Below, piece by piece: positions 12,852 to 22,977 of a stretch of DNA of 64,000 nucleotides. The DNA is from Candidatus Helarchaeota archaeon (lineage in GTDB: Archaea; Asgardarchaeota; Lokiarchaeia; Helarchaeales; RDOG01). Within the stretch, counting starts at the first letter, position 1, and each line of letters starts with the position of its first letter. Location: contig JALGVI010000006.1 of the NCBI GenBank assembly GCA_029838215.1, positions 1 through 64,000 of the forward strand. Direction: 5' to 3'. The translations under genes and the position numbers were made by a program. The notes below the pieces were generated by a model. That model was not told where the DNA came from and ran no database searches. It worked only from the letters and a program-made list of their open reading frames with translations.

Positions 12852-13253
12852 ATGACTTATGAGAAAATCAATAAAATTCTTTCTGAGATCTCAAAGGTGC
12901 TCCGAGGGAGCATGGACATCATTAAATTCTCAAAAATCGTATCGGAATTTAATACAGAATTGAATCAAATCCTTAAAAATTATCATGAGGCAGGAGAAGA
13001 TCAAGAAAAGATGAGACCTCAAGTAATGTACTACCAGAACGTTTTTCAAGATTTAATAATGGCAAGCTTAACCGATGAGAATCTTGAACAGTTTAAGGAG
13101 TGCTTACTCGACAAGATTGAAAACAGATATTGTCTAATAGAAGGAGATTTTACGTGCCAAGCACGTGAACAATCCAGACATATTTCAGATGTAAAACCCA
13201 TTTTAGAGGAAATTATAAAAAAGAAACTGGAAGAACAAGGAAAAGATAATTAA
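12852..13253 (+). CDS. Hypothetical protein (helical)
   Basis: 133-aa ATG ORF, divergent from prf1, with a 4-bp convergent overlap with the GTPase gene. Confidence 0.7.
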   Translation: MTYEKINKILSEISKVLRGSMDIIKFSKIVSEFNTELNQILKNYHEAGEDQEKMRPQVMYYQNVFQDLIMASLTDENLEQFKECLLDKIENRYCLIEGDFTCQAREQSRHISDVKPILEEIIKKKLEEQGKDN

Positions 13254-13768
13254 GTTATTAGGGAAAAAATCTCGTTAAAAAGCTCTTCGACACCCCAACC
13301 TTTTAAGGCTGAGATTTCCTTGTAATATTTTATGTCATATTGCTTGAGATACTTTTCAATTTGTTCTTCGGGTATGCGTCGCAATTTTGCCAAGTCCAAT
13401 TTATTGCCCACCAAGATGAATGGCACGTTTTTGTTATTGCATTTTTCGCGTAGTTCTTGAATCCATTTAGGAACAGAATGAAAGGTACCGATGCGCGTTA
13501 GGTCAAAAAGAATTAGAGCACCATCCGTTCCGCTGTAATATATTTCTCTTATTTCTTCAAAACGTTCTTGTCCTGCAAAGTCCCAGAAATTCACTTCTAG
13601 TGTTTCAGAGCCCTTAAAGTTTTTAATGAGTTTTACTAAGATTTCAACACCTAACGTGGCTTTATAATCAGCAGGCAATTTTCCAGTAGTGAAACCTCTC
13701 ACCAAAACGGTTTTTCCAACGGCATCGTTTCCCGTTACAACGATCTTTTTCTTCACGCCTTTCCTCAA
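13250..13768 (-). CDS. Rab/Ras-like small GTPase; probable start GTG at 13756
   Basis: G1 GNDAVGKT, G2 YKATLG, G3 WDFAGQERF, G4 NKLD, G5 SAL. There is no C-terminal prenylation Cys. Confidence 0.95.
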   Translation of the reverse strand: MRKGVKKKIVVTGNDAVGKTVLVRGFTTGKLPADYKATLGVEILVKLIKNFKGSETLEVNFWDFAGQERFEEIREIYYSGTDGALILFDLTRIGTFHSVPKWIQELREKCNNKNVPFILVGNKLDLAKLRRIPEEQIEKYLKQYDIKYYKEISALKGWGVEELFNEIFSLIT

Positions 13769-13923
13769 CTCACTTGGAGATGAATTTCTTGATTCGTATT
13801 TTTTAACATATTATGATTTCATGCTTTTTAAGTATTAAATTAAAATCAATTAATAATCATTTCTTCGATTATTAAAAAAGATTAGAACTTGGGTTCAAGG
13901 ATGATGCAGGAGATAAAAAATCG

Positions 13924-14364
13924 ATGAAAACAATTAAAACGGGAATTTATGAGAAGGGAATTATTTCAGTAGATGACCTGATCAAGACGATAAAGGCTCA
14001 CCCAGATGCTTGGAAAATAGGAGCCATAAATGTTTACATCGGTGTCGTTAGAGGTGAGACGAAAGGTCAGAAACCAGTGAAAAAGTTGATAATTGATTCA
14101 TATCGTGAGAGAGCTCACGATGCGCTAAATGAAATCTGCCAAGAGCTACGAGCAAGAAAAGGAATTATCGACGTCTTGATTTGTCATTTAATGGGAGAAT
14201 TTGTAGTTGGAGAAGATTTAGTTTATGTCGTTATAGGGGCAAGTCATCGAGAAGACCTATGGCCTGTTGCAATGGAGAGCATAAATAAATATAAAGAAAA
14301 GGCAGAGATTTGGAAGAAAGAGATCCTCCAAGATGGAACAGAATATTGGGTTTCCGGTCATTAA
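13924..14364 (+). CDS. moaE: Molybdopterin synthase catalytic subunit MoaE
   Basis: GAINVYIGVVR, HLMG-x-x-x-VGE, ASHR and K-x-x-AEIWKKE...W motifs. Confidence 0.92.
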   Translation: MKTIKTGIYEKGIISVDDLIKTIKAHPDAWKIGAINVYIGVVRGETKGQKPVKKLIIDSYRERAHDALNEICQELRARKGIIDVLICHLMGEFVVGEDLVYVVIGASHREDLWPVAMESINKYKEKAEIWKKEILQDGTEYWVSGH

Positions 14365-18981: not shown

Positions 18982-19008
18982 ACAAAATAAAAAAAAGGTT
19001 TTTTTTAA

Positions 19009-20247
19009 TTAATCGATGAATTTAACAAGCACGCGGACGGGATCTTGTTTTGGACGAGTGAGAATCAAGATGTCCATGTGCCCAATCAATTCACCCATTG
19101 TTTTTCGTTTATCTTCTTCATGCGAGGGGAGATAAGGATTCCAAATTGGAGTCTTTGTCAATTCTTTAGTAACGAGACTTTGATCAATGTCAACTTCTAG
19201 TCCTTCATATGCACTCATCACGCCATCGAAAAGCATGGAAATGTTTTCGTTTCGAGAGACTTCGATGGTCCTGATGTCCGTGCCATGTCCGCAAGCAGGG
19301 CATTCTTCCCATTTTGCAATATCGATGTATTCGAACAGTCCGTATACTCCGTTATAGTTAATGTATGGAGGTTTTATAATAGGACCGATATTTTCACCTT
19401 TTAGCAGGTGCAATAGTTTTAGAACTTCGTGTGACTGCACGGCAGAAATAACGGCAGTTGTTGTTTGTATGGCGGGCATTTTGTTCTTAATGACATTTTC
19501 CATGTCTTCAAACCGGAATTCGGGAGGAAAGTTGTGTTCTTTCACGTATTTATTTGCACGTTCTGTAAGAAATCGCACGTCCTCATCATTATCAAAGTCA
19601 GGTCTTCGGTTGAATTCCTTGCCAAAATCATATTCGGCTTTCAAGGCGCAATGCTCGCGTTTTTGCGGAATTCCTTTTGGCGTGCACGCCGCCACCATTT
19701 TTTCATCAGTTGGGGGAACGGGCATCACGCATCGGAGGCATGGCGTGGATTCCATTCCGGGAATGCCATCAGGGATGACGATTTGGACATGTCCTTCAAA
19801 TCCCAAAGTTCCACTATCGATTAATGGTTTTTTTAGACGCAAGCAAATGTCATTGAGATCCAGTCGTGCCTTGATGTTATCCAGTCCGCCTATGATGACA
19901 TCACAGCTTTCATAGACGCTTAATGGGATTTCTTGAAGAAATTTGAAGTATGTTTCAACTTTTAGGAAAGGGTTGAGTTCTTTTAATCGTTCAGCAGCCA
20001 CTTCAGCTTTGGGACGACCTTCATCACCAGGTTTGAATAACATTTGCCGGGAGAGATTAGACGTTTCAATAGTGTCAACATCAACCAAGACCATTCGTCC
20101 AATCCCTACGAGTGCAAGATTTTTTGCGATTTCACAACCGAGAGCTCCAACTCCGATCATGAACACCGATGAATCCTTGATGAGCTCTTGCGCCCAACCT
20201 TTAAGCATGAAATGTCTCTGATAAACTTTCTTTTCTTTCTTCTCCAT
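19009..20247 (-). CDS. Eukaryote-type ubiquitin-like modifier activating enzyme E1 (UBA3/UBA2-like)
   Basis: GVGALG, DVDTIETSNLSRQ, LDNIKAR, GTLGFEGH, CLRC + CPAC Zn pair, catalytic-Cys region ACTPKGIPQKREHC, KMPAIQTTTAVISA, and a ~90-aa C-terminal UFD-like domain. Confidence 0.9.
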   Translation of the reverse strand: MEKKEKKVYQRHFMLKGWAQELIKDSSVFMIGVGALGCEIAKNLALVGIGRMVLVDVDTIETSNLSRQMLFKPGDEGRPKAEVAAERLKELNPFLKVETYFKFLQEIPLSVYESCDVIIGGLDNIKARLDLNDICLRLKKPLIDSGTLGFEGHVQIVIPDGIPGMESTPCLRCVMPVPPTDEKMVAACTPKGIPQKREHCALKAEYDFGKEFNRRPDFDNDEDVRFLTERANKYVKEHNFPPEFRFEDMENVIKNKMPAIQTTTAVISAVQSHEVLKLLHLLKGENIGPIIKPPYINYNGVYGLFEYIDIAKWEECPACGHGTDIRTIEVSRNENISMLFDGVMSAYEGLEVDIDQSLVTKELTKTPIWNPYLPSHEEDKRKTMGELIGHMDILILTRPKQDPVRVLVKFID

Positions 20248-20302
20248 TTTAATAACCTATCTGCTTGTTTGACATGATTACTTCATGAATATAAAAAAAA
20301 AA

Positions 20303-21574
20303 TCACATTGGTTCTTCGGAATTTAATTCTCCAGGCATTGAAGGCGTTGGTTCTCGCATGCAATAAGCACATTTACCAATGGCTTTGATATTTTGTTCCC
20401 AGCAGTGAGCATGATATGGCTTTTGACAGTGTGGACATTCGGTATAGCAGGTTTCAGAGGAATGATCATTAGCAGGATCTTCAGCAGCTGCAGAAATTTG
20501 ACTTTCAATAACAATCATTGGCTTGGAGCAAGCGGGGCATTTTGTTTGGTGGCAAATTATACATGAAATAATTGATGCCTTCATGATTTCCTTTGAGATT
20601 GCATCAAATATGTCAACTAGATACGTAAACGAAGACCAATTCTCCAATACTTTCATGCCCTGCTCGAGTTTCTTGGCAATTTCATCATCAGTAATTTCAT
20701 TAAGTAATTTTATCACGGGTTTTGATGTCGGATAATCTTCGGGAAGCTCTACTTCAAATTTAAAGACAGTATCAGCCGTTTTCATCTTTCCCCGCATGTC
20801 CACCAGCAGTTTTCTTTGGTCTTCCAGGTATTCCACGCGTTCAAGACCGTAGAGAAGATCGCGTTCGAATTGTAAGCGTGCAACCTTATCGACTTCCCAC
20901 TGAATTTCACGCAAGATGTCATTTGTTGACATTATCGACATGTCCCACGATTTAATGGAATTTAGGTCTTCAGGACGGATTTTCATTATTGCCTGTAATT
21001 CTGGTGAAAATTCCAGGGTCGGTGCAGCGGGTAGTGCATCAAGGTTTACATCAACGCGGTATTCACGAAGTCCAAACGTGAGTAAATCAACAGCAAGGTG
21101 ATGTTCATCCAATTGCTTTGCCTTAAATTCGCCCATGATTAATCGGGCTTGCATTTTTAGTTTTTCAGCACTCGAAAGTTTCCACTCTAGTTCTCGAACC
21201 ACGTCAATGACATGTGTCTGTCCAGGAGTCCAGTTCTTCATGCTGGCAAGATCGTCAGGATTAGCAATAGATTTCAATTCATCCTGAACTGTTAATAAAG
21301 GCTTTTCGGGAAATGCGGAGAAATCAATGCCGATGACAAAATTCATTTCAAGTGAAACGGTGAGATAAATTCGCACGCGAGAAATTGCCCCTTCAACCAT
21401 TTCAACTTGAAATTCATTCATGAGAAGCGTGAGTTCTTCAGCCAGAAGTGCATCCCGATCTTCAGGATATGCTGCAGGGGCTGGCTGAGCAGAGTCCCCA
21501 CCATCTGGTGCTTGAGGTTTCTGAGGAGGAAGTTGCGGTGAACCTTGTTCTGGTGGTTTATCTTCTGGATTCAA
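20303..21574 (-). CDS. Putative E3 ligase: three UBC/RWD-like repeats + C-terminal RING (FANCL-like architecture)
   Basis: Three ~95-aa repeats, each with a beta-meander, an (F/L/Y)P-x-x-(x)-P loop and a W followed by a helix. RING: CIIC...CPHCQKPYHAHC...GKCAYC. TTG start after GAGGG. Confidence 0.75.
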   Translation of the reverse strand: MNPEDKPPEQGSPQLPPQKPQAPDGGDSAQPAPAAYPEDRDALLAEELTLLMNEFQVEMVEGAISRVRIYLTVSLEMNFVIGIDFSAFPEKPLLTVQDELKSIANPDDLASMKNWTPGQTHVIDVVRELEWKLSSAEKLKMQARLIMGEFKAKQLDEHHLAVDLLTFGLREYRVDVNLDALPAAPTLEFSPELQAIMKIRPEDLNSIKSWDMSIMSTNDILREIQWEVDKVARLQFERDLLYGLERVEYLEDQRKLLVDMRGKMKTADTVFKFEVELPEDYPTSKPVIKLLNEITDDEIAKKLEQGMKVLENWSSFTYLVDIFDAISKEIMKASIISCIICHQTKCPACSKPMIVIESQISAAAEDPANDHSSETCYTECPHCQKPYHAHCWEQNIKAIGKCAYCMREPTPSMPGELNSEEPM

Positions 21575-21675: not shown

Positions 21676-22977
21676 TTACTTGAGATCTGAGATTTCAAGG
21701 GAGATATTACTAGATACTAGTTTATGAGGAGGGATATCTATGTCGATTGTTGTATTTGGAAGAATGACACAATTATTTCCAATTGTTTTTCCTGCTAAAA
21801 TGGACACGTTATTACAAAGCAGCGTATTATTTCCTATGAGCGTGCCGAATTTCTCAAATGGAACGGGAAGGTGTTCATCACCAACTTTCACTAGAATCGC
21901 ATTTTCTCCCTTTGATTTCTTAAAGATGGGTAAATTTGAAGTTTGAATGCCTGCCCGAACTTCCACGCCTTGACCAACAATACTGTCACCGATAAAACTA
22001 ATGCGCCCGATTTCCGTTTCGGAAAATATAATACTATTTCGAATTTCCACGCCATACCCTATCGTGACGTTCTCGCCAATAGAAGAATTCAAGCGAATTA
22101 GACTATTTGTTCCTATAAAAGCATTCGGACCGATATAGACGGGACCATTGATCGCTGCACCTGATTTGATTATAACATCTTCTGAGATATATACAGGTCC
22201 TGTAATCGTCACTTCAGGAGATATTTCAGCAGAGTTTGCGATGAATGACCCATTTTTCAGGAGAGTTTTATTGAGAACAAATGAATTCGCCTTGAGAAGA
22301 TCCCAGGGATATCGGATTTCAACCCAATCTTTTTCCCAAACAGATGAGTAAACAGATCCACCTCTTTTTATGATTGATAAGATGGCATGATCAAGTTCCT
22401 TTTTTTCGGCAAGTGCGTTGAAAATTTCGGGTTTAAAAATATAGACGCCCGATGCTGCAAAATTCGAAGGCTGCGTTCCTTGTTTTGGTTTTTCTATGAT
22501 GCATTCAATTTTAGCTTCAGCATCCATTTTTACGATGCCGTATAAAGATGGATTTTCAACGAGTGTCACGGATACTGTCGCATCAGCGTTATTTGATTCG
22601 TGCGTTTCGATACAGCGTTGAATGATAGCGGGATCAGCAAAAAAATCGGCATGCGTGATCATGAACTCTTCTTCTTTATCGAAATGAGATGCAGCACAAA
22701 GAATGGCAGCTTCAATGTTTTCGGGTTTTTCTTGTGGTATGTATTCTATCCGGCAGTTAAAGTCATAACCCGTTCCAAAATATTCTTTTATTTGATCTTG
22801 AAGATATCCGACAACAATGTAGAAATCGGATTGACCTGCAGTTTTTAAGTTGTCGATGACATGTTCAAGCATGGGTTTTCCAGCAATCATTAACATTGGT
22901 TTTGGACAGTTCTGCGTGAGAGGTCGGAGTCGCCGTCCTTCGCCACCTGCAAGAATCAGGGTTTTCATTTTTATCAT
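21676..22977 (-). CDS. Sugar-phosphate nucleotidyltransferase with left-handed beta-helix (archaeal GlmU-like)
   Basis: LILAGGEGRRLRPLT...PKPML nucleotidyltransferase motif and hexapeptide repeats in the C-terminal half. Confidence 0.9.
   Translation of the reverse strand: MIKMKTLILAGGEGRRLRPLTQNCPKPMLMIAGKPMLEHVIDNLKTAGQSDFYIVVGYLQDQIKEYFGTGYDFNCRIEYIPQEKPENIEAAILCAASHFDKEEEFMITHADFFADPAIIQRCIETHESNNADATVSVTLVENPSLYGIVKMDAEAKIECIIEKPKQGTQPSNFAASGVYIFKPEIFNALAEKKELDHAILSIIKRGGSVYSSVWEKDWVEIRYPWDLLKANSFVLNKTLLKNGSFIANSAEISPEVTITGPVYISEDVIIKSGAAINGPVYIGPNAFIGTNSLIRLNSSIGENVTIGYGVEIRNSIIFSETEIGRISFIGDSIVGQGVEVRAGIQTSNLPIFKKSKGENAILVKVGDEHLPVPFEKFGTLIGNNTLLCNNVSILAGKTIGNNCVILPNTTIDIDIPPHKLVSSNISLEISDLK

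Follow-up and report, generated by a model that had tools for sequence, protein, structure and literature searches.

A RING protein with three pseudo-E2 folds encoded beside a eukaryote-type E1 gene in a Helarchaeota archaeon: a candidate E3 with a FANCL-like domain layout

Published work on the ubiquitin system of Asgard archaea treats the small-RING and ESCRT gene cluster (PMC5654768, PMC9192718, bioRxiv 10.1101/2023.07.25.550441), and the small-RING cascades of Caldiarchaeum and Helarchaeia have been reconstituted in vitro (PMC5654768, bioRxiv 10.1101/2023.07.25.550441). The present work concerns a protein of another build, P0001, encoded in a stretch of 64,000 nucleotides (the window) from a Candidatus Helarchaeota archaeon (GenBank assembly GCA_029838215.1, contig JALGVI010000006.1, positions 1 to 64,000 of the forward strand), which is contig C155 of an assembly of 3.6 Mb that is 94% complete with 6% contamination. 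P0001 consists of three domains with the fold of ubiquitin-conjugating enzymes (UBC fold; the enzymes are termed E2) followed by a RING finger, and its gene lies directly upstream of a gene for a eukaryote-type ubiquitin-activating enzyme (E1), P0002. We propose, with a probability of roughly 65%, that P0001 is the RING-type ubiquitin ligase (E3), or an E3-like adaptor, of a dedicated third eukaryote-like ubiquitin-type cascade.

Each of the described proteins closest to P0001 shares a part of its architecture. FANCL, like P0001, has three dead UBC-like folds (ELF and the double RWD, or URD) and then a C-terminal RING, in ~375-420 amino acids (aa). In Listerin (LTN1), which works on stalled 60S subunits, a single RWD domain and a RING form the C-terminal module behind a very long stretch of HEAT repeats; P0001, by contrast, lacks a HEAT region and carries three UBC folds. 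BRE/BRCC45 of the BRISC and BRCA1-A complexes is likewise an array of dead UBC folds, and unlike P0001 it is without a RING. RBX1 and APC11 resemble the finger; P0001 differs from them in lacking the cullin-binding N-terminal strand, in the fusion of its finger to pseudo-E2 domains, and in a disordered insert of at least 26 residues between zinc ligands 4 and 5. The archaeal small RINGs (Pfam Prok-RING_1) share with the finger the core C-P-x-C-x4-H...C-x2-C, but they are free-standing proteins of 70-120 aa, whereas P0001, part of another E1/E2 set, has a third zinc site as well as three UBC folds. Full-text literature searches turned up no account of an Asgard multi-UBC-fold RING protein; a kinetochore paper mentions just one Asgard RWD sequence (PMC6601020).

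Pseudo-E2 folds and RING finger of P0001

The P0001 gene occupies positions 20303..21574 of the minus strand (stop codon 20303-20305) and encodes 423 aa from a TTG start, which is supported because the homologues begin with MNPE(D/N) at the aligned position. Both P0001 and the co-oriented E1 gene, 55 bp downstream, lie where the original prediction from the DNA had placed them. Thirty-four homologues were found at E <= 1e-61, in Helarchaeota, Lokiarchaeota and Promethearchaeota records. Invariance and cysteine counts were taken from an alignment of 30 family members, and an AlphaFold2 model built on 30 homologues (mean predicted local distance difference test score, pLDDT, 80.8) was compared with known structures by Foldseek, VIA-align and ESM Atlas searches. 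Residues 1-35 (21470..21574, minus strand) form the Pro/Gln-rich N-terminus that had been noticed in the sequence; pLDDT is below 50 for residues 1-33, in keeping with disorder, and this head varies in length across the family and is poorly conserved.

The three E2- or RWD-like repeats that had been read from the translation correspond to three units of the model, at residues ~36-135, 136-228 and 229-335, each built of a helix, four strands and a helix. Domain 1 (residues 36-135; 21170..21469, minus strand) is free of Cys and is matched in VIA-align by the RWD domain of GCN2 (Z 9.9), the UEV-like domain of VPS37A (Z 9.7) and UBE2E1 (Z 9.4). Domain 2 (residues 136-228; 20891..21169, minus strand) aligns with domain 1 in hhalign at a probability of 98% (E 3.7e-14), and the two are a clear internal duplication. 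Domains 2 and 3 together match the tandem RWD of Knl1 over residues 150-336 (Z 9.9). Domain 3 (residues 229-335; 20570..20890, minus strand) is more diverged (E 2.5e-4 against domain 1 in hhalign) and is the most E2/UEV-like of the three, with the Tsg101 UEV domain and many E2s at Z 10.9 (root-mean-square deviation, rmsd, 2.5-2.7 over ~100 aligned residues). In Pfam it scores 23.6 bits for RWD, above the cut-off of 22.8, and 26.1 bits for UQ_con, just under the cut-off of 27; both families match 30/30 members at E <= 10. When the Protein Data Bank (PDB) was searched with the single P0001 sequence and with the family profile, only E2s matched, on domain 3 and at E ~1e-3.

No cysteine precedes the finger in P0001, as had been observed at the outset, nor in any of the 30 aligned members (0 in 308-511 residues), and exactly 10 cysteines fall within the finger, so that throughout the family Cys is confined to the finger. 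In the alignment of domain 3 to Ubc13, x-D-D stands in place of the HPN motif, and Met, Val or Thr in place of the catalytic Cys. Because of these replacements and the lack of any Cys before the finger, the three UBC folds are catalytically dead. The same genome also encodes a 427-aa paralogue of P0001 (genome G000, contig C13; L114:2744-4027, plus strand), which combines a coiled coil with three RWD-like units and a Cys-rich finger of a variant type and sits after a 152-aa and a 95-aa gene without an assigned role.

The finger (residues 336-412; 20339..20569, minus strand) contains 12 Cys and His residues that are invariant in the family (C338, C341, C346, C349, C376, C380, C383, H388, H390, C391, C402 and C405), and W392 and R407 are likewise invariant. 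Twelve invariant ligands imply three zincs, and the finger is therefore predicted, from this ligand count, to be a three-zinc RING of an Rbx1/APC11-like pattern, which fits the earlier suggestion that the additional CPAC/Cys residues may bind a third zinc. By their order and spacing the ligands would correspond to the three zinc sites of Rbx1, with putative site 1 made up of C338, C341, H388 and C391, site 2 of C380, C383, C402 and C405, and site 3 of C346, C349, C376 and H390. The finger motif reads as first quoted, and a C4HC3-like sub-pattern is present in it, but the C4HC3 label covers just a part of the 12-ligand finger. Active RINGs contact the ubiquitin-charged E2 through a Trp behind the sixth ligand and an Arg behind the last Cys, and the finger retains both positions, the Arg being invariant.

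Residues 357-372 form a disordered insert in the model of the finger, and when the finger was folded alone, pLDDT exceeded 90 in 44/86 residues. Among the top 50 Foldseek matches, most are RING, U-box or RING-like zinc domains; GATOR2 subunits rank at the top, and RBX1, APC11, RNF4, RNF165, RNF38, Listerin and Ring1B are on the list. Every row of the VIA-align top 50 is a RING, U-box or RING-like zinc domain, with Listerin at Z 6.4, RNF165 at 5.9, RBX1 at 5.6 (25% identity over the whole finger; RBX1 alignments range over Z 5.2-5.6 at 23-26% identity) and APC11 at 5.3, values that are modest, as expected of a 60-residue domain. Neither PHD fingers nor FANCL appear in the top-50 list of either program. 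By these lists and its conserved ligands, the modeled finger has the cross-brace fold of RINGs. In Pfam scans of 27 members, the best family was Prok-RING_1 (27/27 members, best E 2.3e-5, under its cut-off), and zf-rbx1 and zf-ANAPC11 matched weakly in 9/27 and 7/27 members; the genome's own 79-aa RING, encoded beside a cluster of ubiquitin, E2 and E1 genes, also matches Prok-RING_1. By these matches the finger is a RING of the archaeal small-RING lineage to which a third zinc site was added.

Out of 1.84 billion cluster representatives, just 98 proteins match the family at E <= 1e-3, of which 18 reach E <= 1e-30, and a separate search of 400 genomes of the phylum found matches in 137. The strong full-length matches are all in the class of the source organism (7/7 genomes in its own order and 102/135 in the largest family), and the other Asgard classes gave just E values of 1e-6 to 1e-12; the family is accordingly strongly present only in Asgard archaea of the class Lokiarchaeia. 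Most Lokiarchaeial families have a four-fold form of ~560-600 aa in which the extra fold again resembles fold 1. Fold number is thus labile, three or four, through duplication of a unit-1-like fold.

The E1 gene and gene order in relatives

P0002 (19009..20247, minus strand; 412 aa) had been described as UBA3-like, and the comparison bears this out. Its ThiF domain spans residues 19-317 (Pfam ThiF, E 2.3e-61), residues 21-322 align with UBA3 at ~1e-41 over a span that includes the catalytic-cysteine domain, and the active adenylation domain of Uba1 matches at E 1.2e-44, with the catalytic Cys motif of Uba1 opposite A-A-C188-T-P-K-G-I-P of P0002. We conclude that P0002 is, as far as its sequence indicates, a canonical eukaryote-type E1 with Cys188 (nucleotides 19684-19686) as the predicted UBA3/Uba1-like catalytic residue. 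No Pfam family matches residues 300-412 at E <= 10, and the last 110 residues are likely to form a putative ubiquitin-fold domain.

The spacer between the two genes, read directly from the sequence, measures 55 bp (20248..20302, minus strand). A run of ten T residues and TATATT directly follow the E3 stop codon (20290-20302, minus strand), which may be an archaeal terminator or a TATA-like element for the E1 gene; because of this element, the E1 gene may have its own promoter. The word operon, used for the pair in the original prediction, is therefore in doubt. A second motif, A8-CC-T8, directly follows the E1 stop codon (18985-19008, minus strand) and may be an archaeal terminator. Upstream of P0001 lies a sugar-nucleotidyltransferase gene (21676..22977, minus strand; Pfam NTP_transferase, 7e-42), which serves here as a synteny marker only and is found upstream of the E3 gene in G128, G126, G127, L112 and L113 as well.

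Adjacency of the E3 and E1 genes, which the original prediction had named as a check, is kept in at least seven assemblies: that of the window, G128, G126, G127, RDOG01000002.1, the JGI Helarchaeota contig L112 and SDNC01000001.1. In three of them (G128, RDOG01000002.1 and L112) the row E3-E1-E2-JAB is contiguous, with an active E2 and a JAB/MPN+ isopeptidase. The row of G128, which belongs to the same family, reads nucleotidyltransferase, E3, E1, E2 (169 aa, UQ_con) and JAB (~480 aa), followed by a short ThiF gene and then by a gene for a VWA/Ssl1 protein with RING fingers; L112 also has the Mrr-like and nucleotidyltransferase genes found upstream in the window. G126, G127 and SDNC01000001.1 keep nucleotidyltransferase-E3-E1 without E2 and JAB, as does the window. 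Contig C155 carries no ubiquitin-family gene and no active E2 (the sole UQ_con match is P0001 itself), as had been noted for the window, and the E2 that was expected to be supplied in trans was found on contig C161 of the same genome, where orthologues of the operon E2 (83% identical) and of the JAB isopeptidase (61%) lie together. The row in this genome was evidently broken just after the E1 gene.

In the sister family f2, the gene after the E3 gene encodes a 388-aa protein without an assigned family. A paralogue of this 388-aa protein precedes the E1 orthologue, which is on a different contig, and E2, JAB, ThiF and VWA genes lie 4-8 kb from the E3 gene. On Lokiarchaeota contigs of the large family, the orthologous E2 gene is 2.4 kb from a gene for a 525-aa E1, which is collinear with P0002 (70% identical over the first 160 residues, with two insertions). 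A confinement of the E1 orthologues to the order of the source organism was considered and ruled out, since these 525-aa ThiF proteins are collinear orthologues. The enzymes and the E3 family are thus class-wide, and their joining in one gene row is specific to this order.

That the two genes are chance neighbours, with the E1 engaged in MoeB/ThiF-like sulfur transfer and without a functional tie to the RING protein, we regard as very unlikely. The NCBIfam models that name P0002 at the top are ThiF and MoeB, a MoaE gene lies 5 kb away at 13924..14364, and the E3 and E1 genes are not adjacent in most Lokiarchaeial families. However, all those NCBIfam scores are far under their cut-offs, five unrelated genes on both strands separate MoaE from the E1 gene, and the genome has separate short ThiF/MoeB-type genes (256-279 aa), whereas the 412-aa E1 has a catalytic-Cys insertion aligning with UBA3 and Uba1. 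The conserved adjacency, with an active E2 and JAB following in three assemblies, speaks against chance as well.

Several other genes recur around these loci. The short ThiF protein beside the E3-E1-E2-JAB row in relatives is ~270 aa long with CxxC pairs, and the VWA/Ssl1 protein beside the row has two RING-like fingers (L048:2362-5375; L053:14292-16365; L112:9411-11491), one of which resembles the finger of the E3 (33% identity, E 2e-5). A family of ~390-aa proteins without a Pfam match, P0132, has 16 copies in the source genome; copies flank the E2-JAB pair on C161 (10851-11993, plus strand, and 13103-14266, minus strand), and the sister family has one copy after the E3 gene and another before the E1 gene (L049:9273-10439; L062; L064). 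The only lead to its nature is a weak, PP2C-like language-model score of 0.87; P0132 may be a substrate or adaptor family of the cascade. Genes for Ras/Arf-family small GTPases recur near the E3 family too, at 13250-13768 (minus strand) in the window, 6.5 kb off, and immediately upstream of the E3 gene in two relatives (L048:6477-7886; L052:6763-7644). In one Lokiarchaeial family, the P0002 orthologue (47-49% identical) is a protein of 792 aa with two tandem ThiF domains (L066:1393-3771, minus strand, genome G279; also L065, L067 and L068), of which the N-terminal one has a degenerate nucleotide-binding motif and the C-terminal one is intact and carries the Cys domain. By its sequence this protein is an archaeal E1 of Uba1-like, pseudo-dimeric build contained in one polypeptide.

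Likeness to FANCL, Listerin and BRE

The best full-length Foldseek match of P0001 is human FANCL (9a0j_L, E 1.3e-8 over 407 columns, covering all four domains), with further FANCL matches at 4.7e-8 (7kzp_L) and 3.2e-4 (fly, 3k1l). After human FANCL rank BRE/BRCC45 (1.7e-6), Listerin (3e-5), and then Knl1 and Mediator subunits. In the ESM Atlas, the nearest non-self structures are C-terminal modules of Listerin, and clusters of FANCL cover units 1-2 at a template-modelling (TM) score of ~0.3. For fold 3 together with the finger, Listerin is the best rigid match, at an ESM Atlas TM of 0.49-0.51 by target and an rmsd of 3.6-3.8 across ~120 residues. Because TM-scores to FANCL are just 0.22-0.26, the FANCL match is one of domain order and not of rigid shape.

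It is unlikely, in our estimate, that P0001 is a true relative of FANCL, that is, that a common ancestor already had three dead UBC folds and a RING and that the prokaryotic root of the Fanconi ligase is to be found here. In its favor are the rank of human FANCL in Foldseek, the FANCL clusters among the ESM Atlas neighbors (TM 0.29-0.32), and the E2s, because the cognate E2 and its paralogue in a second cluster of the genome (on contig C122) both have UBE2T, FANCL's own E2, as their best single-sequence PDB match (69.6 vs 61.3 bits for UBE2K with the cognate E2; 84.5 vs 65.9 bits for the next family with the C122 paralogue, which is found class-wide). With the E2 family profile, however, UBE2T, UBE2K, Ubc1 and UBE2D tie within 2 bits; the lead of UBE2T vanishes, and a UBE2T-specific partnership was not counted as a FANCL signal. 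Pfam FANCL_d1 matches 2/30 members at E >= 0.009, FANCL_d2 and FANCL_d3 are not among the families listed, FANCL_C matches neither the finger when scanned alone nor the P0001 gene in a search of the whole genome, and the best 60 PDB sequences for the family profile are without FANCL. The low TM-scores count against the relationship too, as do the internal duplication of folds 1 and 2, which are recent duplicates, and the labile count of three, relatives having four folds. The finger of FANCL has eight ligands, whereas the 12-ligand finger of P0001 matches RBX1, APC11 and Listerin rather than FANCL. A Pfam search of the genome for FancD2 gave no match, but the controls were equally silent, so that this result is uninformative. 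Finally, unlike FANCL, the P0001 family stands in a gene row with its own E1, E2 and deubiquitinase.

Of the FANCL architecture claimed in the original prediction, therefore, the three dead folds and the RING stand, together with the top full-length Foldseek match, and the Pfam domains, the finger and the fold count do not agree with it; the claim that the finger closely matches that of FANCL failed, its structural neighbors being Listerin, RNF165, RBX1 and APC11. P0001 resembles FANCL in the order and the fold of its domains, and common descent with FANCL is unproven. We class P0001 as a candidate RING E3 of FANCL-like layout, not as a member of the FANCL family, and its bearing on the origin of the Fanconi ligase is a hypothesis.

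We find it similarly improbable that P0001 is a scaffold or reader without ligase activity, which would bind the modifier or organize the JAB protein in the manner of BRE/BRCC45 or of GATOR2-type RINGs. BRE/BRCC45 is the third Foldseek match (6gvw_C), Pfam BRE matches weakly in 10/30 members (best 1.3e-3), JAB and VWA genes are near in relatives, the JAB with a long helical tail, recalling BRCC36 and MERIT40, and GATOR2 RING-like domains, which are structural and not catalytic, head the Foldseek list of the finger. The JAB protein, however, has Rpn11-like proteins (3.6e-14) and CSN5 (6.7e-13) as its best matches, with BRCC36 at 1.9e-6 or weaker, and the tightest and most conserved neighbor of P0001 is the E1 gene, not the JAB gene. 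The finger moreover retains the Trp and Arg positions of active RINGs, and the co-folding of the finger with the E2, described below, gives weak support against a scaffold. A BRISC-like reading of the UEV array, JAB and VWA genes was rejected on the same ground, the JAB being Rpn11/CSN5-like and not BRCC36-like.

The proposed cascade and its setting in the genome

In the cascade proposed here for P0001 as E3, P0002 would adenylate a ubiquitin-like modifier encoded elsewhere, load it on Cys188 and hand it to the cysteine of the E2. The RING of P0001 would bind the charged E2, while the pseudo-E2 domains might hold the modifier, in the way of UEV/Mms2, Tsg101 and the FANCL ELF, or else the substrate, in the way of the FANCL double RWD, and the JAB protein would remove or mature the modifier.

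The finger was co-folded with three zinc ions and the cognate E2, using alignments. The interface score ipSAE was 0.35, 0.09 and 0.35 in the three runs (median 0.35), as compared with 0.00 in three controls; the runs share at least 73% of their contacts, with a partner pLDDT of 88 or higher. The mark applied is reached by 58/80 solved complexes and 2/110 mismatched pairs, and passes at 0.60 or under account for 7/80 solved complexes and for both passing mismatches. The co-folding check of E2 and RING envisaged in the original prediction hence sets the pair apart from its controls at a level where mismatched pairs pass as well. The pass may also reflect likeness to solved complexes, because RING and E2 are a textbook pair.

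Several points weigh against the assignment of P0001 to a dedicated cascade. The modeled pairing of finger and E2 is weakly supported by the co-fold, and the finger resembles the RING-like domains of GATOR2, which are of the structural kind. The run of T residues after the E3 stop codon puts co-transcription of the E3 and E1 genes in doubt; no RNA run is listed among the sequencing runs that contain the sequence, and just two DNA runs contain a small share of its words. The E3/E1 pair is split in one sister family (f2), and in most Lokiarchaeial families the four-fold homologue is away from any E1, E2 or JAB gene; because of both, the E3-E1 link is lineage-restricted. The modifier, lastly, is absent from the cluster, and no small hidden open reading frame was found between the E1 and E2 genes in relatives (none of at least 35 aa in the 270-bp E1-E2 gap of one relative).

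The source genome encodes three active E2s and no fewer than three E1s of the eukaryotic type, besides the separate short ThiF/MoeB-type genes mentioned above. One cluster, on contig C112 (L015 6155-8277), comprises RING, ubiquitin, Rad6-like E2 and E1 genes beside a gene for a Vps4-like ATPase and is the classic ubiquitin-ESCRT cluster. Another, on contig C122 (L016 4921-9475), comprises genes for a ubiquitin-like protein, an E1, a UBE2T-like E2, a short JAB protein and a membrane-anchored RING, and is conserved class-wide. The E1 and E2 of the present module are 40% and 44% identical, respectively, to those of the C122 cluster. A NEDD8-like cascade was considered for the present module and rejected, since the E1 scores Uba1 at or above UBA3 and the E2 ranks UBE2F well under UBE2T and UBE2K.

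A tblastn search of the operon loci (E < 1e-4) returned none of the genome's three genes for ubiquitin-like proteins. One of them encodes a protein of 86 aa that ends in Gly-Gly directly before the stop codon (G000:C1:59094-59351, minus strand; also L006:1489-1749) and is 65-98% identical across 135/161 genomes of the class. A tie of this protein to the cascade by gene order was looked for and dismissed, as 0/12 loci have an adjoining E1, E2, E3 or JAB gene. We regard it as a candidate modifier of the present module or of another cascade.

A wider interpretation, which we put forward as speculative and consider doubtful, is that Lokiarchaeia possess a third self-contained cascade (E1, UBE2T/UBE2K-like E2, Rpn11/CSN5-like JAB and multi-pseudo-E2, three-zinc RING E3) whose E3 would represent the archaeal stock of the eukaryotic ligases that join a UBC fold to a RING (FANCL, the Listerin C-terminus, RNF25 and the WDR59-type RWD-RING modules) and of the Rbx1-type three-zinc RING, with the pseudo-E2 array acting as a built-in Mms2/UEV that places the acceptor modifier. 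The FANCL link, if true, would bear on how the Fanconi pathway arose; it is presently an architectural resemblance only.

Known archaeal cascades use tiny free-standing RINGs, whereas the build of P0001 is that of a eukaryote-style multidomain protein, which in its own lineage is tied by gene order to one particular set of E1, E2 and deubiquitinase. The enzyme set is complete, small and soluble-looking and is open to reconstitution in vitro; work with it could address how a RING E3 that has UEV/RWD modules of its own functions and whether modules of this type are older than eukaryotes. The presence in one Asgard genome of at least three parallel E1-E2 sets is evidence for a diversification of the ubiquitin system before eukaryogenesis.

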